From: an uncultured bacterium
Lineage (GTDB): Bacteria > Planctomycetota > JAJSAM01 > JAJVHW01
NCBI GenBank assembly: GCA_937996235.1
Contig: CALKVK010000012.1
Coordinates: forward strand, 145,139 to 209,138
Length of the DNA stretch: 64,000 nucleotides
Reading direction: 5' to 3'
Part shown: one piece after another, positions 16,210-36,641 of the stretch
Layout of the letters: each line of letters begins with the position of its first letter
Numbering within the stretch: position 1 is the first letter of the stretch
Notes under the pieces: generated by a model
Databases searched by the model: none
Told to the model about the DNA's origin: nothing
Seen by the model: only the letters and a program-made list of their open reading frames with translations
Made by a program: the position numbers and the translations under genes

Positions 16210-16376
16210 CGGACCTCCCCCGTCCCGGCTCCGCGGTCGGCCTCCTCTGCCGTCCCCGCGTCACCGACCCACGTGGGATCGAGATGCAGCGTCGTTGCAT
16301 CGGGAAGCGGCGGATGCGGACTTGAGGGAAATCCGGGTTTTAGCGCCGCGGCGGCGACGCGAGCAGCGGCGCACCG

Positions 16377-19690: not shown

Positions 19691-19817
19691 GGAGCCCTCC
19701 CGGCGCGCGGCACGCGCGCCTCCCACATCCGCAGGGAGTCTACGGAGCCGGGACGCGGCGAATCCACCGTCGATTCGCTCCGTGAATGACGCAGCCTCGT
19801 GCGCGGAGGTCGGCACG

Positions 19818-20207: not shown

Positions 20208-21386
20208 TCACCTCTTCTCGGTCTCGCGGTCCGGCGGCGCATTCGCCTCCACGGGCCGGAACGACATCGGGAAGGTCATCGCGAGGCGCAGGCCGAGGGT
20301 CGCGTCCTCGCCGATCGCCACGGGCCGCGGCACCGAGACGTCGATCGTCGTCGCGGGGTCCGCGACCCGCCCCCCGCCGAGTGCGTCGCCGCCCCGCAGA
20401 TCCACGCGCAGCTCGACGCCGACGCGCGGGGCTCCCTCCGCACCGTCGGCCCGCGCGACGCCGTTCGTGGGCCACGATCCGAACGCGCCGGGCCACGCGT
20501 CGCCGGCCCACCACGTGCCGCCGCGCGCGAGGCCCTCGAGCTGCGAGCGCTGCCACGCGCCGCCGGGGACCGGCCGCGCCGTGACGTACTGCCACTCCGC
20601 GATCGAGGGCACGCGCAGCTCGTGTCGTCCGAGCACCGCGGAGAGCTCCTCCCACGTGAGGGCGAACGACCCGTCGTCCGCGACGACGCGCGCAGGAGGA
20701 GCGGCGCCGTCGAGGAGCGGCTCGAGGAGGTGGTTCCACTGCGCGAGCGTCGTGGGGCTCCTGGCGACGAGGAACGACTGCAGCCGGACGTGACGCTCGA
20801 CGACGCGCGCGCCGTTGTTCTGGGCGGTGCGCGTCGCAGGCAGCTCGAAGCTCTGGTCGGCCTCGCCGCCGGGCACGAGCACCATCACGAGCGCGGGATC
20901 GTCGCCGTCCGGCACGCGCCCCGTCGCCGGGTCGCGCAGCCGGATCGTGCCGGAGCCGACGACCGCGAACTCGAGGAGCCCCGTCTCGGGATCCGGGCCG
21001 AGCGGCACGATCGACGGCGACGCCTCGATGTGGAACCAGTCCGGCGGGCCGGACTCGGCTGCGTCCCCGTCCGTCCCCCGCCAGAGCACGACGCTGAACA
21101 GGTCGGCGTAGCGCGCGTCGCGCGGCAGCTCGTTGCGCAGCGCGTCCCAGAGCGCCTCCTGCTCGCGGCGCGACAGCGTCTGCCGCAGGACGACGGGCGT
21201 GGTGTCGGGCGGCGGCTCCAGACCGGCGAAGCCCTGCGTGTCGGGACCGGCGACGGCGTCGGGCAGCTCCTCCCCGACGAGCGCGCGACCGAACGCGGCA
21301 GCCGAGCCCGCGGCGCGTCCGCGCGACTCCGCCCCGCACGCGGCGACGACGAGTGCCAGCGCGAGCGGAAGAGCGCGCCGCGTCAC
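20208..21386 (-). CDS. Lipoprotein with formylglycine-generating-enzyme (FGE-sulfatase/SUMF1-like) domain. Last gene of the central operon.
   Basis: GTG at 21386 gives VTRRALPLALALVVAACG (lipobox). FGE-like motifs SFLVARSPTTLAQWNHLL and RVPSIAEWQYVTA (compare LPTEAEWEYAAR). The start overlaps the upstream stop (GTGA). Confidence 0.75.
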   Translation of the reverse strand: MTRRALPLALALVVAACGAESRGRAAGSAAAFGRALVGEELPDAVAGPDTQGFAGLEPPPDTTPVVLRQTLSRREQEALWDALRNELPRDARYADLFSVVLWRGTDGDAAESGPPDWFHIEASPSIVPLGPDPETGLLEFAVVGSGTIRLRDPATGRVPDGDDPALVMVLVPGGEADQSFELPATRTAQNNGARVVERHVRLQSFLVARSPTTLAQWNHLLEPLLDGAAPPARVVADDGSFALTWEELSAVLGRHELRVPSIAEWQYVTARPVPGGAWQRSQLEGLARGGTWWAGDAWPGAFGSWPTNGVARADGAEGAPRVGVELRVDLRGGDALGGGRVADPATTIDVSVPRPVAIGEDATLGLRLAMTFPMSFRPVEANAPPDRETEKR

Positions 21387-21973
21387 GCGCTCTCCCGCGG
21401 CGCGCGCAGGCGCGAGGACACCGCGCGCACCCAGGTGTCGGCGGCGAGTGCGTCGCCGAGGCCCTCCGCGACGGCGACGAACTCGTAGAGGCGATGGCGC
21501 CGGCGGCGGAACGACGCCGCGACCGTCAGAGCGCAGCACGCCAGGAGACCGTGACCGACTCCGAGCAGCACGACGTCGACGGCGAAGGATGGCGAGACCA
21601 CCGTGGACGCCCCCGAGCCGAGGAGTGCGAACGCCGTCCGCAGCACCGCCCAGAAGAGCAGCAACTCCACGAGGATGCGCGCACGCGACGCCGCCTCGTG
21701 CCGCCGCGACTCCGCCAGCGTCACGAGCGTCGGGTGGACGCACGCGACCGCGCCGACGACGAGCCACGCGAACGTGCGCGGTCCCGGAGTCGCCGCGTCG
21801 AGCGACGCGCCGCACGCGGCCGCGGCGAGTGCGACGCACGCGGTCGTCGCGAGGGGGACGGCCCAACCGCGCGACGTCCCCGGACCGGGCGACGGCTCGC
21901 GCGGGGCGAGCAGTTCCTCCCAGAGCGCGAGGGGCGCGCTGACCGGCGTCGACGGGCGCGAGGTATCGCTCAC
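21383..21973 (-). CDS. Small multipass membrane protein (~196 aa).
   Basis: Only the C-terminal ~196 aa of track ORF 21383..26242 are protein-like, with TM helices (WAVPLATTACVALAAAACG, AWLVVGAVACV, LVELLLFWAVLRTAFALLG, VVLLGVGHGLLACCALTVAA). GTG at 21973 overlaps the upstream stop (GTGA). Confidence 0.6.
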   Translation of the reverse strand: MSDTSRPSTPVSAPLALWEELLAPREPSPGPGTSRGWAVPLATTACVALAAAACGASLDAATPGPRTFAWLVVGAVACVHPTLVTLAESRRHEAASRARILVELLLFWAVLRTAFALLGSGASTVVSPSFAVDVVLLGVGHGLLACCALTVAASFRRRRHRLYEFVAVAEGLGDALAADTWVRAVSSRLRAPRESA

Positions 21974-24900
21974 GCCGGGAGCGCCTCGCCGTGCTCCATG
22001 TCGTCCTCCAGATCGTCCTCCATGTCGTGCTCCGCCTGCTGCGCCTCGGCGGGCGAGCCGGCCTCGACCGCGGGCTCCGCCGTCTCGGCCCAGTCCAGCT
22101 CGACGTCCACGTCGAGCGCGTCCGAGCCCGTCGTCTCCGCTTCGGTCGCCCCGGCCGCCGCCGCGGCCTCCTGCGCGCGACGGCGCCGCGACATGACGAA
22201 CCCGATGGCGCCGCCGAGCACCGCGAGACCGATCCAGACGAGGAACGCCCAGCGCGCCACGTCCGCCATCCACGCCGTCGCGGCGGCGAGGGCGCGCAGT
22301 CCGAGCCACGTGCCCGCGCACGCCACGGCGACCACGACCAGCCGGCGCGGCGCGACGTCCACGGGCCGCAGCGCGCCGCGGCGTTCGTTGCGCACGTGGA
22401 CGAGGAGCGCCGCCCCCGCCGCCGCGAGGAACGCGCCGCCGACGGCCGTGCGCAGCACGCCGGGACTCGCCGCGGGCGCGAGCACGTCGAGGCGCCACGC
22501 GAGCAGCGCGAGCCAGCCGAGCGGCACGAGGTGCGCGGCCGCCCACACCGGCGGCGCGTACCGCGGTGCGTCGCGCGCCGCGGCGGCGCGCTCGGATGCG
22601 GGACGTTCGTCCGCGAGCAGCGCCGAGACGACACGGTCCACCGGCAGCGCCGACAGCGCGCGCTCGAGTCGCCCGGGTGCGACGGCGTCGGCGTGACGTC
22701 GCGCGCACGCCGCGGTCCGCGCGAGCACGACGACGAGCACGAGCACCTCGACGACGAGGAGCGCACGCCAGTCGTCCCACGTCGCCGCGCGCGCCGCGTC
22801 GAGGACGGCGCCCGACCCGCCGTGGTGGCCGAGCAGCGCGCCGACGTGCAGGAGCAGCAGCTCGGACGCGAAGAGCCACCAGCGTCCGCGCAGGTCGGAC
22901 CGCGCCGCGGAAGCGCCGCACCCGAGCGCGTACACCGCGACGACCGGCATGACGACGTCTCCGACGCCGAGCTGGGCGAGGCCCCACCCGAGCGCCCACG
23001 CGACACCGAACGTGCACGGCGGCGCAAGCCACCACGTGCGCTCGGGACGCCGCTGCGCATCCGCCGACGCGGCACGCGGAGCGCGCCGCAGCAGCGCGGC
23101 GACGGAGCGTCGCACGCGCACGCCGAGGCCGTCGTCGGCGAACCCCAGGAACACCGTGTCGCGCAGCGCGTCCGCGTCCGGGTCGTCGGCCGTGGCCGAG
23201 CGGCGCCGCGCCTCGGCGAGGCGGCGCAGCCACGGACGCTCCTCGACCGCCACCTCGAGAGCGTCCGGGTCGGACGCGGACGCCGGGACGAGCCACGCGA
23301 GGAAGCTCGCACGGATCTCGCGCGCGAGCGGCTCGGGGAGCGCTTCGGTCAGGTGGCGCCGCAGCCAGTCCGGGAAGACGCCCGCGCGCATCCACGGCAG
23401 CCGCACCAGCCGCGTGAGGTCGGCGGACGTCCACGCGTCGGAGCCGTCGGTGTGCGCGAAGACCAGGTCGCCGAGCCGCTGGGTGAGGCCGTGGTGCACC
23501 TGCGGGTACACGGCGCACGCGCAGAGCCATGCGTACGTCTGCGGTCCGAGATACGCGCGCAGTTCCGCCAGCACGCGCGCGACCTCGTGCTCGGGCGGCG
23601 ACCCCGACGCGAGCCAGCGCTCCGCGCCGGCGCGCAGCGTGGGCGGGAACGCGGCGCGCCCGCCCGCGCCGCGGTGCGCGTCGAACGCGGCGAGGTCGCC
23701 GGGCGCCGCCGCGCGCGCCGGGGTCTCGAGGGCCGCGACCGCGAGACCGTCGGCGAGGACGGCGCGCTCCTCGTGCGACCACTCGTCGCGCGCGGCCGGG
23801 ACCACGGCAGAGCGTTGCGCCCACGCGTCGAGCCCCGCGAGCCACGGTGCCGCGCCGCCGCGCGGATCCCGGAACGTGGACGCCTCCGCGAACACCAGCA
23901 GCCGCCGGTCGCGCAGGCGTCCGACGAGGTCGTCGAGCCGCTCGGCGCGCTCCCCGCCGCGGCGCCGCACGACGCGCGGATCGCGCGAGAACTCGAAGCG
24001 CTCGACGTGCACGCCCTCCGACTCCAGACGGTCGAGCACGGCTGCGACGTGGTCGGCCTGCGCGTCGGCGGCGCTGCGCCGATCGACGAGCGCGACGTAC
24101 TCCGGCGTCTGCGGACGCGAGCGCAGGACGGGCGTCGGCAGGCCGCCCGCGGCGACGGTGCGCTCCACGCTGCGTTCGACGTCGAGGTCGCCGGTCACGA
24201 CGTCGGCGTGTGTGCGCAGGCGCGCGATGTCGGCGCGCAGCGTCGGGGCCACCGCGGAGCCGCGCGTGTGCTGCGGCACGGTCAGGAAGGCCGGCCGCGC
24301 GTCGTCCGCGACGACGCCGCGCCGCACGTAGGCGCGCGCGATTCCGCGGCGCACGACGACGCCGACCAGGAACACGCCCGCCAGCGCGGCCACGAACGGC
24401 AGCGGCGACGGCGCGGGCGCGCCCACGCGCCACACGCGCAGCGTGCCGTCGAGCGACGACGTCGCGATGAACGCACCGTCGGGGCTGAAACGCGCGTCGG
24501 TCACGGCTCCCGTGTGACCGAGCAGCACGCGCTCGAGGGCGCCGGTCCGGGCGTCCCAGACGCGGGCCGTCATGTCGGCGCTCGCGGTGACGATGCGCGT
24601 GCCGTCGGGACTCCAGTCGCCTCCCGTCACCCAGCCGTCGTGTCCGCGCAGCGCCACCACGGCGCCGTTCGTCACGTCGTAGATCCGCGCGACGTCGTCG
24701 GTGCGCGTGACCAACAGGGAGACGGAGTCCGGCGAGAACGCGATGGTCGCCAGGTCGCCGCGCGGTCCGGACCACGCCCGCGCCTGCGACCCGGTACCTG
24801 CGTCGAAGGTCCGAAGCGTGCCGTCCTCCGCGACTGCGGCGATCCAGTCGCCCGACGGACTCCACGCCACGGCGTGAGCAGGCGATCCACCAGTCGGCAG

Positions 24901-26964
24901 ATCTGCAGCGGTGCTGCCCGTCACAGCATCGACCACGCGCACGAGCGCGTCGTCGCACGCAGCCGCGATTCGTCCGCCGTCCGGGCTCCACGCGATGTCC
25001 TTGGCGCCCTCCATCGACGAGAGCCAGCGGACCTCGGCGCCTGTCCGACCGTCGCAAACGTGGACGGTCGCAGTGTCGGAGAGCGCGATCTGCCCGCCGT
25101 CCGGGCGGAAGCGTACTCGCCAAACGATCCTCCAGCGACCGGTCAGGGGACTGCTGGAGGCGCCCGTGCGCGTATCGAACAGCGCGTACGTCGCCAGACG
25201 GGATCCGTCCGGGCTCCACGCCGCATCCACCACAGGGAGTTCGTGCGGGCCGACATGCACGACCGCATCCGCGCCCGCCGCTGCGAAGATGGACGCGGCG
25301 CCGCGGACGGAGAGCGCCGCGATCCTCGTTCCGTCCGGACTCCAGCGAAGTCCGCGCAGCCGGTCCGATCCGGGCGTCGAGCGCCACGTGACTGCGTCCT
25401 CGAGGTGGGTCACGTCGAAGAGCGTGGCCGACGGGGACTCGCCGACGACCACGCGTCTGCCGTCCGCGGCCCAGGCGACGGCGACTGCGCCAGCCGTCTC
25501 CGCCGCGGTGCTGCGCGAGTCCAGCTCTCCCAGTTGCTCTCCCGTCACCGTGTCCCAAACCCGGGCCCCGGCATCCGACGCCGTCGCGATCCGTGTTCCG
25601 TCCGGGCTGAACGAACACGCGCTGACGACGCCGTCGGGGCTGGAGAGCTCGACGCTCGGTGCATCGCCGCTCACGGGCCAGACGCGTGCACCCTGATCCG
25701 CATACGCGACGAACCGGCTGCCATCTGCGCTCCACGACGCTCCGTGCAGCATGCCGCGCTGGATCTCGACCTCCGCCACGGTCACCGGCGCCGGGCCCTC
25801 CACGTCCCACACGCGCACCGTGCCGCCCTCGGACGCGACGAGCAGCCGGCGCGTGCCGGCGTGCCACGCGATCGCGCGGATCGGGAGCGGATGCGCCTGC
25901 AGCGCAGCGAACTCCGGCTGTTCCTGCGACGCGCTCCAGAGCCGCACGCTGCCGTCCTCGCAGCCCGTCGCCACGCGGCCGCCCGACAGCCACGACACGG
26001 CGGTGACCGGGGACGCGCACTCGAGGACGCTCGCGGTCGTCCCGTCCGCAGCGCTCCAGACACGGGCCGTGCCGTCGTCGGAGCCGCTGACGACGTGTGT
26101 CCCCGCCGCGTTCCACTCCGCCGCACGCACACGTCCCGTGTGCTCTGCGTACCCGACCACGTTCCGACCCGACTCGACGTCCCACACGCGCGCCGTCCCG
26201 TCCTCGGACGCCGTCAGCACGCGCGTGCCGTCGGGACTCCACGCGGCCTGCGTCAGCCGCTTCGAGTGGCCGGCGAGGACCGCATCGCAGCCGCCGTCGA
26301 GGTCCCAGAGACGAGCCGTGCCGTCGTCCGAACCGGTCAACAGGTGCTGCCCCTGCGGCGAGAACGAGACGAACGTGACCGCGGACTCGTGGCCGAGGAG
26401 CACGGGCGGCGACCAGCGCGAGCGGGTCCGCTCCACGTCCACGACCTGGAAGTCCGCCGACGACGTCGCCGGCGGCGGCTCGACTCCGACCGATCGAACG
26501 ACCTGCTGCGGCGGTCCCGGCTCCGGCTCGACGACGGGGTCGGACTGCGGCGGCGTGGGCCGGAACACGTCGAGCGCCCAGAGCGCTGCGACGCCAAGGG
26601 CGAGCACGACGAGCACCGCGAGCGCGACGCGCACCGTGCGCGATCCCGGGGCGGGCGTCCGCGGCGGCGCGCGTCGCGCGGGCCCCCTGCCACGGTCCGC
26701 GGTCGGTGCGACCGCGGGTGCGCCGCCGCGCCGCAGGCGCTCGCGCAGGTCGCGCTGCTCGTGCGGCGAGCGCGCGATCAGCGGCGCGAGCCAGTCGGCG
26801 ACGTCGTCCGGCGTCTCCCCCGCGGCGCCGCGTGCGACGAGCGCGAGGAACGCCTCCTGCACGACCAGGTGCTCCTCGACGCCGACGCCCCAGCCCTCGC
26901 GCCGCAGCTCGCGCAGGAGCGCGTGCAGCGCGGCGAGGCGCTCGGAGTCGGCGGGACCGCTCAC
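21970..26964 (-). CDS. Giant WD40-repeat / multipass membrane protein (~1664 aa). N-terminal helical region, one TM, at least 12 WD40 blades, a long middle region, and a C-terminal polytopic membrane domain with an acidic tail.
   Basis: GTG at 26964 overlaps the MoxR stop (GTGA). Canonical WD40 units (GHSKRLTQAAWSPDGTRVLTASEDGTARVWDVESG and similar, repeated). C-terminal hydrophobic helices. Ends ...DDLEDDMEHGEALPA at 21970. Confidence 0.8.
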   Translation of the reverse strand: MSGPADSERLAALHALLRELRREGWGVGVEEHLVVQEAFLALVARGAAGETPDDVADWLAPLIARSPHEQRDLRERLRRGGAPAVAPTADRGRGPARRAPPRTPAPGSRTVRVALAVLVVLALGVAALWALDVFRPTPPQSDPVVEPEPGPPQQVVRSVGVEPPPATSSADFQVVDVERTRSRWSPPVLLGHESAVTFVSFSPQGQHLLTGSDDGTARLWDLDGGCDAVLAGHSKRLTQAAWSPDGTRVLTASEDGTARVWDVESGRNVVGYAEHTGRVRAAEWNAAGTHVVSGSDDGTARVWSAADGTTASVLECASPVTAVSWLSGGRVATGCEDGSVRLWSASQEQPEFAALQAHPLPIRAIAWHAGTRRLLVASEGGTVRVWDVEGPAPVTVAEVEIQRGMLHGASWSADGSRFVAYADQGARVWPVSGDAPSVELSSPDGVVSACSFSPDGTRIATASDAGARVWDTVTGEQLGELDSRSTAAETAGAVAVAWAADGRRVVVGESPSATLFDVTHLEDAVTWRSTPGSDRLRGLRWSPDGTRIAALSVRGAASIFAAAGADAVVHVGPHELPVVDAAWSPDGSRLATYALFDTRTGASSSPLTGRWRIVWRVRFRPDGGQIALSDTATVHVCDGRTGAEVRWLSSMEGAKDIAWSPDGGRIAAACDDALVRVVDAVTGSTAADLPTGGSPAHAVAWSPSGDWIAAVAEDGTLRTFDAGTGSQARAWSGPRGDLATIAFSPDSVSLLVTRTDDVARIYDVTNGAVVALRGHDGWVTGGDWSPDGTRIVTASADMTARVWDARTGALERVLLGHTGAVTDARFSPDGAFIATSSLDGTLRVWRVGAPAPSPLPFVAALAGVFLVGVVVRRGIARAYVRRGVVADDARPAFLTVPQHTRGSAVAPTLRADIARLRTHADVVTGDLDVERSVERTVAAGGLPTPVLRSRPQTPEYVALVDRRSAADAQADHVAAVLDRLESEGVHVERFEFSRDPRVVRRRGGERAERLDDLVGRLRDRRLLVFAEASTFRDPRGGAAPWLAGLDAWAQRSAVVPAARDEWSHEERAVLADGLAVAALETPARAAAPGDLAAFDAHRGAGGRAAFPPTLRAGAERWLASGSPPEHEVARVLAELRAYLGPQTYAWLCACAVYPQVHHGLTQRLGDLVFAHTDGSDAWTSADLTRLVRLPWMRAGVFPDWLRRHLTEALPEPLAREIRASFLAWLVPASASDPDALEVAVEERPWLRRLAEARRRSATADDPDADALRDTVFLGFADDGLGVRVRRSVAALLRRAPRAASADAQRRPERTWWLAPPCTFGVAWALGWGLAQLGVGDVVMPVVAVYALGCGASAARSDLRGRWWLFASELLLLHVGALLGHHGGSGAVLDAARAATWDDWRALLVVEVLVLVVVLARTAACARRHADAVAPGRLERALSALPVDRVVSALLADERPASERAAAARDAPRYAPPVWAAAHLVPLGWLALLAWRLDVLAPAASPGVLRTAVGGAFLAAAGAALLVHVRNERRGALRPVDVAPRRLVVVAVACAGTWLGLRALAAATAWMADVARWAFLVWIGLAVLGGAIGFVMSRRRRAQEAAAAAGATEAETTGSDALDVDVELDWAETAEPAVEAGSPAEAQQAEHDMEDDLEDDMEHGEALPA

Positions 26965-27956
26965 GCGCCCCCGCGCCCCGCCTTCCACGTCGCGAAGATG
27001 CGACGCGCCGCCGCGAGATCCTCCTGGCCCTTCACGAGCGTTCCGAGGTCGCCGTCGGCCGACGCGGCGAGCGGGTTCGCGACGCCTTCCCCGGCGGAGC
27101 GCCGCAGCGCGGCGAGCCAGTCGATGAGCTCGGACGTCGCCGGCGGCTTGCGCAGGGGCGGCCGCGCGTCGCGCAGCGCACGGAAGAGCGCGAGCGCGTC
27201 CTTCACGAAGGCGCTGCCGGGCGCCGCCCAGGAGCCGAGGCGGCTCACGAGGATCTCGCCGAGGCGCTCCTCGTCGGGGAACTCGATGTGGTGGTAGACG
27301 CAGCGGCGCAGGAACGCGTCCGGCAGGTTGCGCTCGGAGTTGCTCGTCACGATGACGATCGGGCGCAGCGCGGGGTCCGCGGCGATCGCCGCGATGCCGA
27401 GCTCCGCCACGCGGAACTCCATCCGCTCGATCTCGGCGAGCAGGTCGTTCGGGAAGTCGCGCGGCGCCTTGTCGACCTCGTCGATCAGCACGACGCTGCG
27501 CCGCGGACCGTCGTGTGCGAACTCCGACGGCAGCCACGTCGCGACCTCGCCCGACTCGCGCGACAGCAGCACCGCGCGGCCGAGCGCCTCGTAGCGCAGG
27601 AAGCGCAGCCCGTCGGCGAGCGAGCTCCCGCCCGCGTCGCGCGCGTGGAAGCGGCCGAGCGCGTCGTACGTGTAGAAGAGGTGCCGCGCCTCGCTCGTCG
27701 ACTTCGTGTCGAAGCGCAGCGGCGCGCCGAGCCGCAGCTCCCACGCCACGCTGTAGGCGAGCTGCGTCTTGCCGGTGCCCGGTTCGCCGGTGAGCAGCAG
27801 CGGGCGGCCGAGCAGGATCGCGAGGTCCACGGCGCGGCGCAGCCGCGCGTCCACGCGGTAGCCGGCGGGGTCCTCCGCACGCGCGCGATCGACGGACGGC
27901 AGGTCGACGGCCGGCGCCTCGCGACGCTCGCCGCTCCCGCGGTAGATCATGTCCAT
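26961..27956 (-). CDS. MoxR-like AAA+ ATPase (AAA_5 family, 331 aa).
   Basis: Walker A LLLTGEPGTGKT; Walker B VVLIDEVDKA; sensor and arginine-finger region IVIVTSNSERNLPDAFLRRC. Length is typical of MoxR. Confidence 0.9.
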   Translation of the reverse strand: MDMIYRGSGERREAPAVDLPSVDRARAEDPAGYRVDARLRRAVDLAILLGRPLLLTGEPGTGKTQLAYSVAWELRLGAPLRFDTKSTSEARHLFYTYDALGRFHARDAGGSSLADGLRFLRYEALGRAVLLSRESGEVATWLPSEFAHDGPRRSVVLIDEVDKAPRDFPNDLLAEIERMEFRVAELGIAAIAADPALRPIVIVTSNSERNLPDAFLRRCVYHHIEFPDEERLGEILVSRLGSWAAPGSAFVKDALALFRALRDARPPLRKPPATSELIDWLAALRRSAGEGVANPLAASADGDLGTLVKGQEDLAAARRIFATWKAGRGGA

Positions 27957-27969
27957 GGGCAGTCCTCCG

Positions 27970-29220: not shown

Positions 29221-29263
29221 GGGGGGCGAACCTCCTGCGCGCGCCGAGGGCGGCGCGCTCCCT

Positions 29264-30166
29264 TCAGAGTCCGAGTCTGTCGCGCAGCCGGGCGACGACC
29301 GCCGGCTGTGCGAGGTACTGCGCGATGCCGTGGCGCCAGGCGCCGGAGTTCGAGACGCGCACGTCCGCGACCGTCTCCTCGCCGTCGGCGAGGTAGTCGT
29401 TCGCGAGCACGGTGTCGAAGCCGCACACGGGATCGAGCCGGTCGTAGACGTTCGTCCACGCGCCGAGTGCGAGCTTCGCGCTCGGGTACGCGGTGTCGTA
29501 CTCCCACGCGTCGCCGAAGCCGTCCTGCACCTCGGACAGGCCGAGCGGGCTGCCGATCGTGAACAGCGCCGCGACGCCGGGCGTGTCGGCCACGTGCCGC
29601 AGGCAGTCGTACGCGATCACGGTGCCCATGCTGTGCGAGACGACGACGTGCGGCCCGGCCGCCGGGGGGACCGCGCGCAGAGCGGCGACGAAGCGCTGCC
29701 GGATCTCGCGCCGGACGCGGTACGTGACGCCGGGGCGCGGCCGCGACTCGGCGTCGTAGAGGTAGTGGTGGCAGTCGCGCAGGAGCCGCCGCATGAGGAT
29801 TTTCTCGAGGAAGTGCGGCAGCGGGACCGCGCGCTCGGACGCCGCGGCGAACGTCGCCCCGCCCTCGCGGATCGCCTCCTCCGCGAGCTCCTCGGTGCGG
29901 CGGCGGAGCGCGGCGACGAACGCGCGCTCGACGACGTCCGCACCGACTGCGAGCAGCTCGTCCTCCTCCGGCGCCGCGCCGCGCTGCGCCGGGTCCTCGG
30001 CCTCGGGCCGCGCGTAGAGCACGTCGGCCCAGTACACCATCGAGCTCGTCACGCCGCGCGCCGACAGGTCGAGCCCGCCCTGGCGCAGCGCCGCGAGCCA
30101 CTCCGCGAGGAGCACGTCCTGCGGCGGCTTGTTCAGGAGTCCGTGGACGAACGTCACGTGGGGCAT
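29264..30166 (-). CDS. Alpha/beta-hydrolase fold protein (lipase/esterase-like, 300 aa).
   Basis: Nucleophile elbow VVVSHSMGTVIAYD (GxSxG-type). Conserved downstream Asp/His candidates. Confidence 0.8.
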   Translation of the reverse strand: MPHVTFVHGLLNKPPQDVLLAEWLAALRQGGLDLSARGVTSSMVYWADVLYARPEAEDPAQRGAAPEEDELLAVGADVVERAFVAALRRRTEELAEEAIREGGATFAAASERAVPLPHFLEKILMRRLLRDCHHYLYDAESRPRPGVTYRVRREIRQRFVAALRAVPPAAGPHVVVSHSMGTVIAYDCLRHVADTPGVAALFTIGSPLGLSEVQDGFGDAWEYDTAYPSAKLALGAWTNVYDRLDPVCGFDTVLANDYLADGEETVADVRVSNSGAWRHGIAQYLAQPAVVARLRDRLGL

Positions 30167-30197
30167 GGGGTCCTCCGGGATGGCGTGGCGGCGCGCG

Positions 30198-33100
30198 TCA
30201 CGCGCGTCCCTCCACCGTGGACAGTGCGGCCGCCAGCGCGGCGAGGTCGGCGGCGTCGCGGCGTCCCGCGGCGGTCTCGGGAGCGAGTTCGCCGAGGGTC
30301 GCGAGCTGCGTCAGGACGGAGTCGCGCTCGCGTGGCGAGGCGCCGCGCGCCGCCGCGCCGAAGCACTCGCGTATCCGCGCGACGCGCGCTCCGAGTGCGT
30401 GCCCGGCGAGCGCGTGCAGGATCTCCATGTCGACGACGGCGAGCTGCCACCACACGTCACGGCGCGCCTCCGGCACCTGCGCGTGGTCCTGACGCGCCGC
30501 GTCGAGGACCGCGCGGACGACGCGCGCCGAGCGCCGGAGGGCCCACAGCAGTGCGGCCTGGTTGCACGCGGGGTAGTAGCCGGCGCCGGGCCGCCCGCGG
30601 GCGGCGAGCTCGACACCGCGCGCGTACTCGCGCTCGGCCTGGGCGAGCAGACGACGACGCTCGCGTCCGACGGCGTGCGTCGCCCGGCGCTTGAACGCGC
30701 CGCCCACGAGCGATGCGCGCTCGCACGTCGGCGGCGCGATCGCGTCGAGCGCGCGGCAGCGCTCGATCGCCGTCTCCCAGAGCTGGCGCGCGCGCGCGAG
30801 CCGTGCGGCGTCCGCGCCGCCGCCCGCGATGCGATGCGCGAGCCGGTCCTCGAAGTTCGCGAGCTGCTCGATGTCCTCGACGCGCAGCGCGGAGCCGTCG
30901 CTCGCGAGCGCCGCGCGCAGATCCGCGACGGCCTCCTCGAAGTCGCCGAGCTCGCCGCGCAGGCGCCCGCGCGCCACGAGCACGCGCGCGCTGAGCCACT
31001 CCGGACGCAGCGCGGCGTCCACCTGCGCGAGACGGCTGCGCACACGCTCCGCCGAATCCGCGCTCGGCCGGCGCAGGTTGTGGAGACCGATGCGCAGCAC
31101 CGCGAGCTCCTCCGCCACCTCGCGCTCCGACACGTAGCGCGGCACCTCGCCGCCGCGCCACGGCGCGGACGTCAGCCGGAAGTGCGGGTCGCCGTAGCAC
31201 TGGAACGCGCCCCACGTCGTGCTCCCGAGCTCGTGCGCGGAGCGGCGCGCCGCGCTCACGGCGTCGCCGAACGTCTCGCCGTCGAGCAGGCGTTCGTAGA
31301 ACGCGGTCGCGAACGCGCGCGCGGCGGCGTCGTCCACGGCCCACCCCGCGACGACCAGGCAGCGCACGCCGATGCGCATCAGCTCGACGGCGACGCTCGC
31401 GGCGAAGCGGCCGTGCTGCGGCTCGTCGGTCCGGCCCAGGTGGCAGCAGCTCAGGAACACGAGCGAGGGGCACGCGGGGAGCTGACGGATGACGTCGGCC
31501 GTCAGCCGCACGTCGTCGCCGATCACCACGCCGGTGCGCGCGGGGTCCGCGGCGTCGAAGGTGCCGTGCGCGGCGACGTGCACCACCACGTAGTCGTTCG
31601 CGTAGAGGCGCTGCAGCACCGCGGACGCGTCCTCGTCGATCGACGTCTCGACGACGTACCGGGCGCGGGTGAGCTGCTGCGAGACGCGCACGGCCTCGGC
31701 GCGCGCCCCCGGCAGGTCCGCGAACGCCGGCGCCTGCGGCGTGCCGACGACGAGCACCGCGCCGCCGCGCGCCGGCTCGACGACCTCGGCGGCGCTGCGA
31801 TCGCGGAACTGCCGCACGACGCCGAGCAGCGCCGGCGACGCGCCGTCGTCGCTGCGCCGGCGCATCAGCAGCTCCCACGGGTAGCGCGCGGTCAGCGGGT
31901 CCACGACGAGCACGAGCTCGCCGGCGTCCGCGATCTCCTCCTTGAAGGGACCGGGCACCAGCAGGTCGAACAGCGTGTGCGAGATGGAGTCGGGCGCGAT
32001 GCCGCTCGTCGTGCGCTCCGTCGCGCGCAGGAACGCATCCACGAGAGTGTGGATCGTGGGCTGCGTGATGACGGGCGCCCGCGCGCGATCGGTCACGTAG
32101 AGGTACTCGAGTCCCGTGGTGCGCGCGGCGTCGCCCGCGTCCTCCTCGCGCCGCGCGCTGACGTGCAGGCGATTCCACCAGCGGTCCGCCGCGGCCCCCG
32201 TGCGGCCGCCGGGACGGCCGTCGCGCCCGATCACGAGCGCGTCGTCCGCGTGCACGTCCGGGAGCCCGCCGCTCTGCCGCGCGCGCTCGCGCGCCGCGTC
32301 GACCAGCGCCCGTGCCGCCGCCACGGCCACGTCCTCGCTCAGCTCGACGAACTCGAGCCGCGCGATGCGCGCGCCGGCGTTCGGACCGTCCGGCTCCGCG
32401 AGCCGCGCGTTGACGCGCACGACCGCGTCGAGGATCGCCGCGATGGACTCGCGCACGTCGAGCGCCCGGCCGCCGCGCGTGCCGATCAGGAGCGACGACA
32501 GCGTGAGCTCGTGCGGCGTGCCGTCGCCGCGCGCGTCCGCGGCGCGGAGCGCCCACTCGAGGACGCCGGCGTGCACCGTGCGCCGCAGCCGCCGCGGCGT
32601 GAGGTCGCCGACGTCGCCGAGCCCCACCACGATCGCGCCCGGCGGACGGCCGGCAGCGCCGTCTTCCGCGGGCGGCGCGTCCACGACGAGCACGTCGCCG
32701 ATGCGCCCCGGGTACTGCCGCACGGCGAAGCGCCGCGCGAGCCGCCCGTCGAGACGCGAGTCGAGGTAGCGCTCGGCGCCGAACAGGCCGTCGCCCTCGT
32801 AGTGGCCCACGAGCACGGGACCGTGCGCGGCGTGCAGACTGCCGTGCACGACCTCCGCACGCAGCTGCGGCCCGACGACGGCCTCCTCGTCGCCGAGCAC
32901 GCGCGCTGCGAGCAGTCCCACGACGCCGTCCTCGGGCGGGAACGTGGACGCGGCCGCGACGATCGTCTCCGGCCGCACGGGAGGACGCGGCGGCACGCGC
33001 GCGGAGACTCCCGCCTCGAGCAGGTCGCGGATGCCCGCGACGAGATCCGCGGCGGACGGCAGCCGCTCGTGGCGCGCGGCCAGCCAGCGCGCCGTGGGGC

Positions 33101-35447
33101 GTTCCGCGAGCGTGGGATCCGCGAGGCACCAGCCGTCGCCCGCGTCGGGCTTGATCTCGGCGCGCAGCCGTGCGTCGGCGGCGCCGCGCTCGAACGACAC
33201 GACCGTGCGGTCGGCGGCGCCGAGCACGGTCAGCGCATCGAGCGCGAGCAGCGCCTCCGCGGCCTTGCGGCGACGCGCCCGTCCGGCGCGCAGGAACTCG
33301 CGCGACGGCGCCGCGTCGACCGCGCGCGCGCGCCACCACTCCGGCTGCCCGCAGGGCTCGGGCAACTGGTCGTGCACCGCGGGGCACTCCGCGAACACGC
33401 GCCGCAGAGCAGCGCGGCGTCCGCGTCCGTCGAGCAGGCAGAGCGACTCGAACAGCGCGCCCTCGCCGAGGGCGAGCGACAGCACGGCGCCCGAGCCGAC
33501 GGTCGGCGGTCCGAGCAGCACGACGCGGCGCAGGCGCGCGGGCCGCGGCACGCCGGCCAGCGCGAGCGCGACGGCGAGGGCGCCGTAGCCGTGCGCGATC
33601 ACGTGCACGTCGCACGCCGCGCACGCCGTCTCGATCCGCTCGCGCAGCACGGCGGCGACGACGTCGAGCGACTGCCGCCAGTCGTACGGCACCGGCTCGA
33701 CGAGCGCAAACCCCTCGAGCGCCCGCTCGAGCGCGATCCACTGTTCGGGGGCCGCGAGTCCCACCGCTCGGACCACGCCGACCGGCGCGGCGAGTCGCTC
33801 GAGACGGCCCGCGACGAGCGCGTCGCGGTCGGGCCAGAGCGGCCCGTCGTCGTCGGCCAGCGACGACCCGAGGAAGTCGGGCACGAGCAGGACCGCGCGC
33901 GAGGGCGCCGCCACGTCGGCGGCCTCGTCGCGCCGCCGCACGGGCACGAGCCGCTCGGGCGGCCCGCCGCGGAACGGCCGGAAGCCGCGCGGACGCAGGT
34001 CCGCGCCGTGCTGCGCGTCGAGTGCGGCATCGACGCTCTGGCGCGTGTCGCGTCCGCCGAAGTACGTGAAGTGGCTGACGGCCGGGCTCTGGTGGAACGC
34101 GGCCACGGCGCCGCCGCGCCCGCCGGTCGCGCCGTACATCGACGCCGTCTGCACGACGAGATCGTTCGCCTCGCCGAAGAACGCGTACGCGGCGAGCGCG
34201 CGCAGGCGGCGCCAGACGCCGTCGCCCTGCAGGTTGCCCGCCACGACGCGCAGCTCGTCGCCCGACGACGCGGGCGCGAGGTTCAGGTAGCGCGTGAGCG
34301 GCGAGCCGGGGAGCTGCGCCTCGATGCCCGGCACCTCCGCCGGCTCCGCGCGCCGGCGGACGATCTCGAGCAGCGTGCCGGTGATCGCGTCCACGACCTC
34401 CGGCACGGCCACGAGCGCGCCGACCAGGTCCACGAGCACGGAGAGGAATGCGTCGAGTCGCTCCGACGCGAGCGTCGTCCCGCTCGCGGGGCACGCGACG
34501 CGCACGAAGCGGCGGATCGCGATGCGCTTCTCGCGCAGCGCGCCCGCGAGCTGCACGAGCTGCTCGCGCTGCCGCGCGCGCACGTCCGCGTCTTCGCCCT
34601 GCGCGCGGAACCCCGCGAGCGCCGCGGCGCTCGGCTCGCCGCTCCGGCACAGCAGCTCGCCGACGAGTCCGCCGCGCGAGTGCGTCAGGAGGTCGAGCTG
34701 CACGCCCGGCGGCAGCCGCTCGACGGCGTGCAGCGCGTTGGCGGCGGGCGTGCGCGAGAGCGTGTGGTGCTCGAGCGCGAGCACGCGCCCGCGGTAGCGC
34801 TGCCACACGTGGCGCCAGCGCGCCGTCGCGACGGCCTGGCCCGACGACGCCTCGCGGCGGAAGAAGTCGCCGAAGCTCCCCTCGGTGCTCGACGCGGTGC
34901 CGTGGATCAGCAGCAGCACGGGCTCGTCGCCCGCGAGCGCCGCGGCGTCGTACGGCTCGAGCGAGCCGTCGCTCGCGACGGAGTAGAGGTCCTCCGCGTG
35001 CGGGAGCCGCGACTCGAGCGCAGCGACGGCCGCGGCGGTCCCGAGCTTCGCGATCTCCTCGTCGACGTCGATGCCGAGCAGCGACAGCGCGCGGATGCCG
35101 AGACCGAGGGCGTCGCGCGTCGCGCCCGGCAGCGGCAGCGCGGACGGCACGACGAAGGCCTCGGGCTCGCCCCGCTGCGACGTCGCGTCGCGCGCGCCCG
35201 CGGGCAGCCCGCCGAACAGCTCGGGCAGACGTGCGACCGACGTCCACAACACGCCGCCGCCGTCGAGTTCGAGTCGGACGAGTCCGTGCGCCTCGCCGGG
35301 CGACACCTGCACGGACTCCGCCCGCGCCCCCGCGCGGTCCGCGGCGAACTCGAAGCGACGCGCCGACGCGATCCGGTGTCGCGCACTCGGGGACGCCACG
35401 CCGTCGGCCCGCGTCTCCCGCGCAGGGATCGTCAGCGTCCGCGCCAT
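30198..35447 (-). CDS. Giant multidomain protein (1749 aa): N-terminal lipase-like alpha/beta-hydrolase domain(s), central CHAT (caspase-like) protease domain, C-terminal TPR-like repeats.
   Basis: Hydrolase region PVLLLIHGTASS...DLLTHSRGGLVGELL and a second degenerate one (VHVIAHGYGALAVALALAG). CHAT signature YVVVHVAAHGTF ... SLVFLSCCHLG. Helical repeats at the end. The overlapping plus-strand 1923-aa ORF is Arg-rich antisense. Confidence 0.85.
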   Translation of the reverse strand: MARTLTIPARETRADGVASPSARHRIASARRFEFAADRAGARAESVQVSPGEAHGLVRLELDGGGVLWTSVARLPELFGGLPAGARDATSQRGEPEAFVVPSALPLPGATRDALGLGIRALSLLGIDVDEEIAKLGTAAAVAALESRLPHAEDLYSVASDGSLEPYDAAALAGDEPVLLLIHGTASSTEGSFGDFFRREASSGQAVATARWRHVWQRYRGRVLALEHHTLSRTPAANALHAVERLPPGVQLDLLTHSRGGLVGELLCRSGEPSAAALAGFRAQGEDADVRARQREQLVQLAGALREKRIAIRRFVRVACPASGTTLASERLDAFLSVLVDLVGALVAVPEVVDAITGTLLEIVRRRAEPAEVPGIEAQLPGSPLTRYLNLAPASSGDELRVVAGNLQGDGVWRRLRALAAYAFFGEANDLVVQTASMYGATGGRGGAVAAFHQSPAVSHFTYFGGRDTRQSVDAALDAQHGADLRPRGFRPFRGGPPERLVPVRRRDEAADVAAPSRAVLLVPDFLGSSLADDDGPLWPDRDALVAGRLERLAAPVGVVRAVGLAAPEQWIALERALEGFALVEPVPYDWRQSLDVVAAVLRERIETACAACDVHVIAHGYGALAVALALAGVPRPARLRRVVLLGPPTVGSGAVLSLALGEGALFESLCLLDGRGRRAALRRVFAECPAVHDQLPEPCGQPEWWRARAVDAAPSREFLRAGRARRRKAAEALLALDALTVLGAADRTVVSFERGAADARLRAEIKPDAGDGWCLADPTLAERPTARWLAARHERLPSAADLVAGIRDLLEAGVSARVPPRPPVRPETIVAAASTFPPEDGVVGLLAARVLGDEEAVVGPQLRAEVVHGSLHAAHGPVLVGHYEGDGLFGAERYLDSRLDGRLARRFAVRQYPGRIGDVLVVDAPPAEDGAAGRPPGAIVVGLGDVGDLTPRRLRRTVHAGVLEWALRAADARGDGTPHELTLSSLLIGTRGGRALDVRESIAAILDAVVRVNARLAEPDGPNAGARIARLEFVELSEDVAVAAARALVDAARERARQSGGLPDVHADDALVIGRDGRPGGRTGAAADRWWNRLHVSARREEDAGDAARTTGLEYLYVTDRARAPVITQPTIHTLVDAFLRATERTTSGIAPDSISHTLFDLLVPGPFKEEIADAGELVLVVDPLTARYPWELLMRRRSDDGASPALLGVVRQFRDRSAAEVVEPARGGAVLVVGTPQAPAFADLPGARAEAVRVSQQLTRARYVVETSIDEDASAVLQRLYANDYVVVHVAAHGTFDAADPARTGVVIGDDVRLTADVIRQLPACPSLVFLSCCHLGRTDEPQHGRFAASVAVELMRIGVRCLVVAGWAVDDAAARAFATAFYERLLDGETFGDAVSAARRSAHELGSTTWGAFQCYGDPHFRLTSAPWRGGEVPRYVSEREVAEELAVLRIGLHNLRRPSADSAERVRSRLAQVDAALRPEWLSARVLVARGRLRGELGDFEEAVADLRAALASDGSALRVEDIEQLANFEDRLAHRIAGGGADAARLARARQLWETAIERCRALDAIAPPTCERASLVGGAFKRRATHAVGRERRRLLAQAEREYARGVELAARGRPGAGYYPACNQAALLWALRRSARVVRAVLDAARQDHAQVPEARRDVWWQLAVVDMEILHALAGHALGARVARIRECFGAAARGASPRERDSVLTQLATLGELAPETAAGRRDAADLAALAAALSTVEGRA

Positions 35448-35568
35448 CCTCCACCTCCCGGGGCCGCGCGGTCACGCGCCTCCCCGTGCGCAACGTCGTC
35501 CCCCACTCCCGGGGACGCCGCGAAGATACACGAAGCGAGGGAGCGAGCGCCGCCGTCGAATTCACGCC

Positions 35569-36471
35569 TCAGCGCGCGCGGAAGGTGTCGTTGGCCCCCG
35601 GGACGCGCGCGAGATCGAGTTCGAGTCGCACCGCCGCAGCGCCCTCGCCGACGACGGCGCCCAGCGCATATGCGCCGTAGACGAGGACCTCGCAGCGCGC
35701 CGTCGTGCGAGTCGTTGCGCTCGGTGGACCGTCGGCCCTGGACAGCGTCTCCGGGTCGTGGCAGAAGCGGATGGCACTGGGGAGCGGTCGATCGGGGTCG
35801 ACCGTCCGCACGCACGCGTGGACTCGGAACCAGTGCTGGGAGCCGACCTCGCGGCCGCGCGCGGGGTCGGGAGGCGGCAGCGGCTCCACACGCGCGCTGA
35901 GCAGGTACGGATGGACGAACGCGCGCCGGCCGAACTGCCCGCGATTGCGGTCCTCCACGCAGGTGCGTCCCGTGACCGTCAGCGCATCGAGCAGGATGAA
36001 GCACTCGAGGTGCGTGCGCAGTTCCGCCGCCGACGCGTAGCGCAGCACGCGGAAGCCCTGCACGTCGAAGTGGACGTCGTCGCCCGCGCGCACGACGTGG
36101 ACGACCGGGCGGCCGATCGCGTGCGCGAAGCCGAGCTCGTAGTAGCAGTTCGGCCGCGCGTGCGTCAGGTCGGCGATGACGAAGTCGGCGCCGCGGATCG
36201 CGTCGCGGATCTCGTCGATCATCTGTCCGCCGGACGGCAGCTCGTCCATGCGGTACGAGCGGAACCCGAACCGCCTCGCCGCGGGCGCGATCGCCTCGTG
36301 ACGCACCGCGCGCAGCTCCGGCGTGTCGGCGAACGACGAGATCACGAAGCAGTAGGGCTCGTCGGGGTCGAACGGCACGGGTGCCCCGGCGCAGGGCTCC
36401 GGCGCCGCGGCATCGGCGACGCCGCTCGCCTCCGGCTGCGACGCAGCCGGCTTCCGTCTCGCCGTCCCCAT
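35569..36471 (-). CDS. TIR-like / nucleoside 2-deoxyribosyltransferase-like Rossmannoid domain protein (~300 aa).
   Basis: ATG at 36471 (MGTARRK...). Motifs CFVISSFADT ... ADFVIADLTHARPNCYYELGFAHAIGRPVV match the D..NPNV.YELGYA..LGKPV signature of NDT/TIR-like domains. A 121-bp gap separates it from the giant CHAT gene downstream. Confidence 0.7.
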   Translation of the reverse strand: MGTARRKPAASQPEASGVADAAAPEPCAGAPVPFDPDEPYCFVISSFADTPELRAVRHEAIAPAARRFGFRSYRMDELPSGGQMIDEIRDAIRGADFVIADLTHARPNCYYELGFAHAIGRPVVHVVRAGDDVHFDVQGFRVLRYASAAELRTHLECFILLDALTVTGRTCVEDRNRGQFGRRAFVHPYLLSARVEPLPPPDPARGREVGSQHWFRVHACVRTVDPDRPLPSAIRFCHDPETLSRADGPPSATTRTTARCEVLVYGAYALGAVVGEGAAAVRLELDLARVPGANDTFRAR

Positions 36472-36641
36472 GCGCACCTCCCGACACACGGCGTGCCCTG
36501 CGCGGTCCGGGCGACTCCACTCGCCGGGCCCGCTCGTCGCAGCGAGGATGCCCGGACGCACCGCTCCGCGTCCACACTCGAACCGCGCCGCCGTGCGGCG
36601 AGGCTCCGCAGATCGCCGCCGCCCGGGCTACCCTCCCGCGC

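Follow-up and report, generated by a model that had tools for sequence, protein, structure and literature searches.

An eight-gene cluster of an uncultured planctomycete that appears to join an iSTAND-MoxR-vWA ternary system to a Macro-CHAT-lipase module

The DNA analysed here, referred to below as the window, is a stretch of 64,000 nucleotides of contig CALKVK010000012.1 from an uncultured bacterium of the Planctomycetota, and the subject of this report is a compact cluster of eight genes within it, designated g1 to g8. All eight are co-directional open reading frames (ORFs) on the minus strand and span window positions 20208–36471 (Table 1), exactly as proposed by a first-pass annotation made from the sequence itself. 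The window has a G+C content of approximately 75% and long ORFs occur in all six frames; therefore, the codon-position composition of g1–g8 was checked. The G+C values at the third codon position (0.91–0.96) and at the second (0.49–0.62) are what genuine genes show in genomes of this composition. In addition, all eight products were found, with the same start codons, in the public protein collection (NCBI/ENA, one contig of 215,954 bp). When clustered at 90% identity, seven of the products were singletons and g6 grouped only with a fragment of 44 amino acids (aa). The ORFs, the codon composition and the public records confirm that all eight genes are real.

The spacing between the genes is tight. 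The first-pass annotation had counted four junctions with GTGA overlaps, of which three were found (g5/g6, g6/g7 and g7/g8), while the gaps that it gave for the remaining junctions, 13–43 bp and one of 121 bp, were correct. A GGAGG-type ribosome-binding site precedes every non-overlapping start, and a scan of the minus strand of the cluster revealed no terminator-like hairpin; it is worth noting that sigma-70 promoter and terminator scans of the cluster are uninformative in DNA this rich in GC. The cluster is bordered at its 3′ side by a convergent gene at 19812–20198 (+) and at its 5′ side by a divergent gene encoding a Ser/Thr kinase-AAA_16-TPR protein. The eight genes are probably co-transcribed.

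Table 1. Genes, junctions and domains of the g1–g8 cluster (positions are those of the window; TM, transmembrane segment)
Feature	Positions	Strand	Size	Description
g1	35569-36471	-	300 aa	TIR/nucleoside-deoxyribosyltransferase-like domain, ~aa 38-150; motif ADxVIADL...N.YYELG, Glu112
g1/g2 junction			121 bp	gap
g2	30198-35447	-	1749 aa	domain order: DUF7379 alpha/beta-hydrolase (Ser257 intact), second hydrolase-like, Macro fold, CHAT, TPR-S
g2, second hydrolase-like domain	33093-33866	-		aa 528-785
g2, Macro-fold domain (predicted)	32208-32870	-		~aa 860-1080, directly N-terminal to CHAT
g2, CHAT (caspase-like) protease domain	31188-31982	-		aa 1156-1420; PF12770, 6e-34
g2/g3 junction			31 bp	gap
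g3	29264-30166	-	300 aa	probable alpha/beta-hydrolase (lipase-like); oxyanion FVHG; nucleophile elbow SHSMG, Ser179
g3/g4 junction			43 bp	gap
g4	27970-29220	-	416 aa	DUF4062, aa 3-86 (PF13271, 2.1e-25, 89.2 bits); iSTAND (inactive STAND) from aa 163 (PF19995, 7.1e-7, 30.2 bits against a cut-off of 24)
g4/g5 junction			13 bp	gap
g5	26961-27956	-	331 aa	MoxR-type AAA+ ATPase; Walker A GEPGTGKT (Lys63), Walker B LIDEVD (Asp159/Glu160)
g5/g6 junction			4 nt	GTGA overlap
g6	21970-26964	-	1664 aa	CoxE-N-like helical domain, aa 8-104; TM1, 113-131; WD40, 185-847; TM2, 853-871; vWA, 915-1100; helical linker to ~1294; five TM segments, 1329-1587; acidic tail
g6, WD40 double-propeller insertion (TM1-TM2 loop)	24424-26412	-		~660 aa, 15-16 blades
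g6, CoxE-type vWA domain	23665-24222	-		aa 915-1100, hhalign
g6/g7 junction			4 nt	GTGA overlap (g7 start on g6 stop)
g7	21383-21973	-	196 aa	four hydrophobic segments (predicted membrane protein)
g7/g8 junction			4 nt	GTGA overlap (g8 start on g7 stop)
g8	20208-21386	-	392 aa	predicted lipoprotein, lipobox LVVAAC; FGS-like region, aa 161-269

Pfam recovered the CHAT, lipase (DUF7379), TPR (TPR-S), DUF4062, MoxR AAA+ and WD40 domains that the first-pass annotation had named, and our analysis added several that it lacked, namely iSTAND in g4, a vWA domain and a CoxE-N domain in g6, and a Macro fold and a second hydrolase-like domain in g2. Within the DUF4062 domain of g4, residue Glu82 lies in the motif SITHLEYE and is conserved in all five of the DUF4062-iSTAND proteins that were aligned (g4 and its counterparts in the loci L082, L083, L029 and L028); by its position and conservation, and not by alignment to a characterised enzyme, Glu82 is the putative catalytic Glu. 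The remainder of the protein has YLCDR and HG motifs in common with the iSTAND proteins of relatives, and the alignment shows no P-loop. The g5 product matches the Pfam models AAA (2.6e-9) and AAA_5 (8.5e-8) and has more than 7,500 homologues at E<=1e-10. The best of these, from Acidobacteriota, Planctomycetota, Cyanobacteria and other phyla, are 52–57% identical to g5 and annotated as MoxR family ATPases, and the GxxGxGKT and LIDExD motifs are invariant in the alignment of the family.

Gene neighbourhoods were compared in 80 genome loci around MoxR relatives, taken from among the matches listed, and in the contigs of seven of the closest proteins (individual loci are given by L numbers). Each of the 17 nearest genome loci has the gene order g4-g5-g6, as do the seven close contexts without exception, and among the loci examined it recurs in about 25 that belong to several phyla. 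The layout consists of a gene for a protein of approximately 350–470 aa, followed by the MoxR gene, often with a 4-nt overlap, and then by a gene for a protein of 800–1800 aa. An iSTAND protein, a MoxR and a vWA protein follow one another in this manner in L003–L033 and L082–L090, with variable C-termini on the vWA proteins. The first gene mostly encodes a variable N-terminal domain followed by iSTAND, the former being DUF4062 (L029, L028, L082, L083), TIR (L018, L085, L086), EAD11 (L010) or DUF4145 (L088). The variable domains of the third gene include FGE-sulfatase (FGS; in L007, L089 and P0123), WD40 (L010), TIR with EAD11 (L018) and TssR (L023). The closest homologues of g5, of g4 and of the g6 core all sit in such trios, and the closest trios (L082–L084) are free-standing units of three genes. 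An observation apart from these concerns a Blastocatellia metagenome-assembled genome, in which a TIR-iSTAND/MoxR trio adjoins genes of a contractile injection system (sheath, tube, gp19-like and Pvc16_N; L086:1-9901, DASUDZ010000735.1).

The third gene of the trio always matches g6 in two regions, aa 8–104 and aa 915–1294. None of the Pfam VWA models matched g6; the consensus of the g6 core, LD...TI...GG.P..Y......EYL.LID.....DH followed by RLL.FGDG, resembles that of CoxE-type vWA proteins. More distant MoxR loci carry neighbours of 390 aa, and all 14 that were sampled match PF05762 (VWA_CoxE). When the g6-core family was compared with these 14 PF05762 proteins using hhalign, a probability of 98.25% (E 2.7e-14) was obtained over 187 columns covering the vWA domain. 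The metal-ion-dependent adhesion site (MIDAS; DVGGSMD in CoxE, of the DxSxS type) is degenerate across the g6-core family and reads LVDRRSAAD in g6. Word-indexed homologue searches returned two matches for g4 and four for the g6 core, which reflects a limit of sensitivity at 75% GC and not orphan status, and tblastn against the fetched loci yielded many relatives.

The iSTAND domain in g4, the MoxR ATPase g5 and the CoxE-type vWA domain in g6, encoded in a conserved order, together identify g4-g5-g6, on the strength of its sequence, as an iSTAND-MoxR-vWA ternary conflict system of the kind described by Kaur et al. (2020). The first-pass annotation was right to place the locus among the NTP-dependent ternary conflict systems; it erred in stating that the genes matched no named system and were not a MoxR-vWA pair.

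The feature that sets g6 apart is its WD40 region (Pfam, 1e-81), the 15–16 blades of which would be enough for two propellers. In nine relatives scanned for transmembrane (TM) segments, the order was N-domain, TM1, a loop of approximately 10–230 aa, TM2, vWA with linker and a variable C-terminus, and in six further close relatives the distance from the N-domain to the vWA core was only about 125–250 aa. None of the relatives examined carries an insert of the WD40 type in the TM1-TM2 loop. The g6 protein is Arg-rich before TM1 and after TM2, and the start of the loop is acidic and neutral. Given the positive-inside rule, these Arg-rich flanks predict an extracytoplasmic location for the propellers and a cytoplasmic one for the N-domain and the vWA domain. 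The suggestion in the first-pass annotation of membrane-associated sensing by this protein is a reasonable one. The C-terminus of g6 is a five-TM region devoid of a recognised domain, as it is in the relative from Acidobacteria (L083).

The two genes that follow g6 were not assigned to any family: neither g7 nor g8 matched a Pfam, NCBIfam or PADLOC model. The first-pass annotation had called g8 an FGE-sulfatase lipoprotein, yet PF03781 (FGE-sulfatase) was not matched even at E<=10. A custom profile built from five FGS sequences of related ternary systems did align with aa 161–269 of g8 (profile positions 73–179 of 306) with a score of 18.0 bits, while 2000 shuffles reached at most 5.8 bits. 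A BLASTP comparison of g8 with the FGS domain of L007 produced only short colinear motifs, LRVPSIAEWQ and ARGGTWW. These data suggest that g8 contains a divergent or partial FGS-like region, as distinct from a demonstrated member of the FGS family. A separate observation was made in Aetokthonos hydrillicola (L089:7609-15429, JAAKGC010000002.1), in which a stand-alone CHAT gene precedes an iSTAND-MoxR-vWA-FGS trio and a diversity-generating retroelement (bAvd and reverse transcriptase) follows it, providing an example of ternary-system sensors that are diversified by such an element. The idea that g8 might be acted upon in the same manner was ruled out, as the region 17–40 kb of the window contains no template/variable repeat pair; the repeats found there are those of the WD40 blades and weak GC-rich matches only.

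Upstream of the trio, g1 encodes a protein with a TIR/nucleoside-deoxyribosyltransferase-like domain. Two Pfam models, Nuc_deoxyrib_tr (3.7e-5) and TIR_2 (4e-3), matched below their gathering cut-offs, and PADLOC reported a 'TIR effector' at 6.4e-11; the C-terminal 150 aa had no Pfam match. For g3, Abhydrolase_6 (3.2e-3) was likewise below the cut-off. Hence, the TIR-like and alpha/beta hydrolase assignments of the first-pass annotation fall short of Pfam gathering scores, and that of g1 gains support from PADLOC. The large g2 protein matched, in addition to CHAT, the lipase-like DUF7379 (3e-27) and TPR-S (2e-7) models and, weakly, the BovA model of PADLOC. The fold that lies directly before CHAT is predicted to be a Macro domain, which would bind an ADP-ribose-type ligand or act as a hydrolase. 

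An exhaustive HMMER search with aa 1–1150 of g2 retrieved 981 representative clusters (at 50% identity) with E<=1e-30. The 150 best representatives were all between 974 and 2013 aa in length, most of them 1,600–1,900 aa, and the majority aligned colinearly over query aa 30–1148 at 31–40% identity. In an alignment of 26 members, the residues H256-S257-R258-G259-G260, the CHAT residues His1294 and Cys1334/1335 and the GHYxGD...GLGxxG region were invariant. The second hydrolase-like domain has HGYGA in g2 alone and HSMGG in the other 25 members; judging from this replacement, the domain in g2 has probably lost its nucleophilic Ser. The adjacent g3 supplies an intact SHSMG hydrolase. The idea that g3 is a paralogue of the hydrolase domains of g2 was dropped, as the nucleophile elbow alone matches.

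The neighbourhoods of the g2 family were investigated in 80 metagenome loci with full-length g2 homologues. None of the 80 has a MoxR, an iSTAND or a g6-like vWA gene beside the g2 homologue. A caspase (Peptidase_C14) gene is located just upstream of it in 18 of the 80, and 19 contain a conserved partner, which is either a protein of approximately 230 aa or a TPR-S fusion of 450–710 aa. The 230-aa form is encoded approximately 110–420 bp upstream of the g2 homologue (L111, L117, L123, L124 and L157) and carries the motif FSGH...GxSGGDLLFAE; its sole Pfam signal is a faint one to YAcAr/SLOG (E 0.077), and the same domain constitutes the C-terminus of TIR-like-TPR-S fusions of approximately 670 aa. 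In seven of the 80 loci the N-terminus of the partner is a TIR-like domain akin to that of g1, with the motif ADLVIAD...N.NV.YELG. One metagenome contig (L129:47-12398, Ga0209254_10003257, 72% GC) has genes for a g2-like giant, a TPR-S-trypsin protein, a TIR-like-TPR-S protein and a g3-like hydrolase within 12 kb, the last of these being 47% identical to g3 and approximately 2 kb from the g2 homologue. The arrangement in L129 suggests that TPR-S is an adaptor shared among effectors. A GH108 lysozyme-like gene is also present in this contig. Conversely, homologues of g1, g2, g3, g7 and g8 were found neither in the approximately 25 trio loci nor in the 90 MoxR-side loci that were examined. The genes g1 and g2, and probably g3, therefore belong to a recurrent, unnamed TPR-S-linked effector family that normally occurs without MoxR, and the view of the first-pass annotation that the eight genes are a single indivisible system finds no support in the co-occurrence data. 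The full set of eight was never seen to co-occur outside this genome, while its sub-modules do recur elsewhere.

We propose a composite locus in which two modules for defence or cell death, an iSTAND ternary system (g4–g8) and the g1–g3 module, are joined and operate as set out below; we estimate the probability of this reading at roughly 0.6. Direct support exists for the gene structure, the domain identities including the Macro fold, the conservation of the trio and the occurrence of the g2 family apart from MoxR systems. Three traits were seen at this locus only: a vWA protein with WD40 repeats in its predicted periplasmic loop, the presence of g7 and g8, and the joining of the two modules.

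The same data bear on the idea that all eight genes constitute one integrated pathway, in which sensing by g6–g8 would be relayed through MoxR to the g4 NADase, then to the Macro domain of g2 and on to CHAT and the lipase, with g3 as a second lipase; the ligand of the Macro domain would be the ADP-ribose product of g4 or a derivative made by g1. The eight genes do share a strand, where three junctions overlap, no gap exceeds 121 bp and no terminator-like site was seen, two NAD-glycohydrolase-type domains together with a Macro fold form a chemically coherent link, and CHAT or caspase-like proteins accompany some iSTAND trios, as a separate gene in L089 and as a fusion in L016, in agreement with the literature. 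Against this, co-occurrence with MoxR, iSTAND or vWA genes is lacking throughout the 80 g2-family loci and the trio loci lack g1, g2 and g3 homologues, the partners of the g2 family elsewhere are TPR-S proteins and caspases, and the nearest trios stand as three genes alone. We consider such an integrated pathway unlikely. Similarly doubtful in our judgment is its most complete form, a single wired pathway in which a periplasmic WD40 region with g7 and g8 gates a MoxR switch that sets off a DUF4062-iSTAND NADase, the ADP-ribose-type product of which, perhaps modified by g1, is recognised by the Macro domain of the CHAT/lipase executioner. If this were true, a threshold system of the ternary kind would be linked to a second-messenger effector resembling those of Thoeris, and envelope surveillance would lead to proteolytic and lipolytic death.

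A narrower interpretation would treat g7, g8 and possibly g1 or g3 as passengers in the transcription unit, leaving g4–g6 as the system and g2 as a stand-alone effector. It would account for the lack of a family assignment for g7 and g8, for the absence of such partner genes from the close trios, and for the rarity beside g2 homologues of g3-like genes (1 of 80 loci) and g1-like domains (7 of 80). However, the 4-nt GTGA overlaps at g6/g7 and g7/g8 imply that translation of these genes is coupled and their stoichiometry matched, g8 contains a region weakly resembling FGS, the commonest sensor/effector domain of iSTAND systems, and L129 brings g2-like, g3-like and g1-like-domain genes together within 12 kb. 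This interpretation strikes us as most improbable.

In the composite that we favour, we infer the topology, the ligands, the order of events, what triggers the system biologically and any communication between the two modules as follows. The g6 protein would span the inner membrane, with its double WD40 propeller in the periplasm and its CoxE-N and vWA domains in the cytoplasm, and g7 (in the membrane) and g8 (as a lipoprotein) would probably partner the propeller on the periplasmic side. A cue at the level of the envelope would be sensed by the WD40 region and passed to the vWA domain. In the next step g5, the MoxR ATPase, would spend ATP to remodel a vWA-iSTAND complex, acting as a threshold switch, which would free or oligomerise the DUF4062 NADase at the N-terminus of g4, and the output would be depletion of NAD+. 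In the other module, by analogy with Thoeris, the ligand of the Macro domain of g2 would be an ADP-ribose-type molecule made by g1 and perhaps also by g4, and its binding would switch on the CHAT protease and lipase-like hydrolase of g2, to which g3 would add a second lipase. Cross-talk whereby ADP-ribose from g4 feeds g2 is chemically attractive and not backed by the co-occurrence data. An envelope-sensing role of g6–g8 is plausible in light of the Esr precedent discussed below; the GTGA overlaps that join g6, g7 and g8 and the TM segments that flank the WD40 region also count in its favor.

Several points weigh against this proposal. The degenerate MIDAS makes classical metal-dependent ligand binding by the vWA domain of g6 unlikely, modelling of the g6 core gave a structure of low confidence, and a fold search with that structure was non-specific. 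The location of the WD40 region is a prediction from hydrophobicity and charge only. Neither g7 nor g8 had a homologue in 170 related loci, and the role assigned to them is deduced from their coupling alone. In the g1–g3 module, TPR-S, present in the relatives of g1 that neighbour g2 homologues, is missing from g1 itself, the TIR-like matches of which are sub-threshold, and the Macro domain of g2 could be a hydrolase rather than a sensor. Moreover, the close packing of the genes, with a g3/g4 gap of 43 bp and no terminator, fits one operon and hence does not speak for independence of the modules. Finally, the papers that we found contain no experimental test of any iSTAND ternary system, and the mechanism is one of comparative inference.

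The surroundings of the cluster were also inspected. The divergent gene at 36381–40259 (+) encodes a Ser/Thr kinase with AAA_16 (STAND-like) and TPR domains; read from the start of its longest ORF, the gene would share 90 nt with the 5′ end of g1, and for this reason the true start is probably further downstream. Kinase relays are known from MoxR-vWA pathways such as Esr. It is directly followed by a gene for a 1740-aa NAD-specific glutamate dehydrogenase (40260–45482, +; Bac_GDH_CD, 2.4e-261), a housekeeping gene that bounds the region of conflict genes. Approximately 4 kb downstream of the cluster, a gene at 13261–16260 (-) encodes a TPR and CHAT protein of 999 aa (CHAT, 1.1e-52) that is unrelated to g2; counting both, the region carries two caspase-like proteases. 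Between these, at 18115–19816 (-), lie three tandem ORFs for small lipoprotein-like products, the first two of which are clear paralogues: in both, the signal peptide ends in GC and a motif common to the pair comes next (AVIFTTSNLTGVELNA / HLIFTTTTKVGVELSA). At the end of the window (62001–64000) the G+C content drops from approximately 0.75 to 0.665, a change that could correspond to the edge of foreign or non-coding DNA.

The abundance of kinase-STAND-TPR and TPR-CHAT genes in the window is one of the observations that would agree with a locus devoid of any anti-invader role, either a death or signalling device for development, kin discrimination or envelope stress in a socially living bacterium, or a MoxR-vWA chaperone for maturation of a g6–g8 membrane complex, in the way that CoxD/CoxE and NorQ/NorD serve metalloenzymes. 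PADLOC detected no complete known defence system, an outcome that the first-pass annotation had anticipated, and g5 is approximately 35–45% identical to CoxD-type MoxR proteins encoded beside CoxE vWA proteins of approximately 390 aa. Furthermore, ternary systems are statistically tied to a multicellular habit and have not been shown to be anti-phage (PMC7159879), and a related MoxR-vWA pathway, Esr, answers epibionts and drives secretion, not suicide. On the other hand, an iSTAND-NADase fusion, a CHAT/lipase/Macro effector and a TIR-like enzyme are typical of abortive-infection toolkits, the cluster contains no metalloenzyme or cofactor-insertion client gene, and a vWA protein of the classical cofactor-insertion type would not be expected to have a degenerate MIDAS. 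Taken together, a role outside defence appears to us distinctly improbable.

The MoxR-vWA ternary systems (iSTAND, VMAP and relatives) are abundant in multicellular bacteria, and the papers found treat them by comparative genomics only. The composite locus offers a compact and testable entry point to them. Its output domain, DUF4062, was identified in 2026 as an NADase that depends on a Glu residue. The apparently periplasm-facing sensor bears on the question of which ternary component does the sensing, and where. The g2 family, with approximately 1,000 clusters at 50% identity and proteins of approximately 1,800 aa comprising lipase, Macro, CHAT and TPR-S domains, is absent from the literature searched, which also held nothing relevant on TPR-S, DUF7379 or their Pfam accessions. 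A Macro fold directly before a caspase-like protease predicts a protease that is regulated by ADP-ribose; if this is true of g2, signalling from TIR to caspase would extend beyond type IV Thoeris.

We compared the locus with a number of known systems; PADLOC and NCBIfam made no system-level assignment for g1–g8. The closest is the iSTAND ternary system, which is vWA-MoxR subsystem 2 of Kaur, Burroughs, Iyer and Aravind (eLife 2020, PMC7159879), extended in a later study (PMC8195603) and known as a class from comparative genomics only. Its iSTAND proteins have TIR, DRHyd, caspase-like or EAD domains at their N-termini, its MoxR is free of VMAP-type extensions, its vWA protein has a CoxE-like 4-helical N-domain, with an N-terminal TM in approximately 28%, and FGS is its most frequent variable effector (PMC7159879). 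Doré et al. proposed that the variable domain of the vWA protein is the sensor. The g4–g6 genes share with this system the iSTAND protein with an N-terminal NAD/nucleotide-processing domain, the short MoxR, the vWA protein with CoxE-N and TM, and the gene order. They differ in that the WD40 region of g6 is N-terminal to the vWA domain, whereas the variable modules identified in relatives (FGS, WD40, TIR, TssR and polytopic TM) are C-terminal; in that the C-terminus of g6 is a polytopic membrane region without a recognised effector and is followed by the coupled genes g7 and g8; and in that an unrelated Macro-CHAT-lipase module lies directly upstream of the trio. Two other candidates were rejected: the beta-propeller subsystem 4 of Kaur et al. 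(2020), given that g6 has 15–16 WD40 blades N-terminal to the vWA domain and that the third component is iSTAND, and the EACC1-caspase system on architecture.

In type IV Thoeris, N7-cADPR made by a TIR protein activates a caspase-like protease, and in type II a Macro-domain effector senses His-ADPR (bioRxiv 10.1101/2024.10.24.620036). The locus resembles these systems in that the short TIR-like gene g1 adjoins a protease of the caspase superfamily with a Macro fold beside the effector. Unlike Thoeris, g1 is NDT (nucleoside deoxyribosyltransferase)/TIR-like, scores under the Pfam thresholds and is not a canonical ThsB, and the protease is a CHAT domain within a 1749-aa protein that also has lipase-like and TPR-S domains. 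None of the ThsA or ThsB models in PADLOC matched at g1–g8, the generic 'TIR effector' for g1 and the weak BovA match of g2 being the only hits.

The DUF4062 domain was described in 2026 preprints as a TIR-like NADase in which a conserved Glu is needed for NAD+ hydrolysis and for defence in Swarozyc, Vulcan, Vesta and Avs2-NIR; DUF4062 of human TEP1 belongs to the same TIR-like NADase set, and Evangelion is a further DUF4062 (NIR) defence protein. The g4 product shares with this family the DUF4062 domain and the conserved Glu. In those defence proteins the NADase is mounted on helical stalks, HEAT repeats or an active STAND, or occurs with a phosphatase, and is triggered directly by phage proteins, whereas that of g4 is mounted on an inactive STAND and has MoxR and vWA partners; no mention of MoxR or iSTAND partners was found in the DUF4062 defence papers.

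With CoxD/CoxE (PF05762), the relationship is one of homology, in that the vWA domain and helical N-domain of g6 are homologous to CoxE and g5 is related to CoxD-like MoxR. CoxE, in contrast, is soluble, approximately 390 aa in length and retains the MIDAS sequence DVGGSMD, whereas g6 has 1664 aa, is membrane-embedded and has a degenerate MIDAS; unlike g4–g6, the CoxD/CoxE loci have no iSTAND partner. The Esr threat-sensing pathway of Actinomycetales, for which experimental data are available, comprises MoxR, vWA and surface beta-propeller sensors (bioRxiv 10.64898/2026.09.08.750141), and the locus resembles it in having a MoxR-vWA pair with a beta-propeller module at the envelope that is, in the case of g6, predicted to be extracytoplasmic. 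In Esr the propeller is carried by separate filamentous surface proteins and a kinase/phosphatase/FHA relay controls Esx secretion; in our locus, by contrast, the propeller lies inside the vWA protein itself and the output would be the NADase-iSTAND protein. By these comparisons, the locus is not categorically new: it is a variant of the iSTAND ternary system, distinguished by WD40 in a loop predicted to be periplasmic and by g7 and g8, which is joined to a member of the Macro-CHAT-lipase family.

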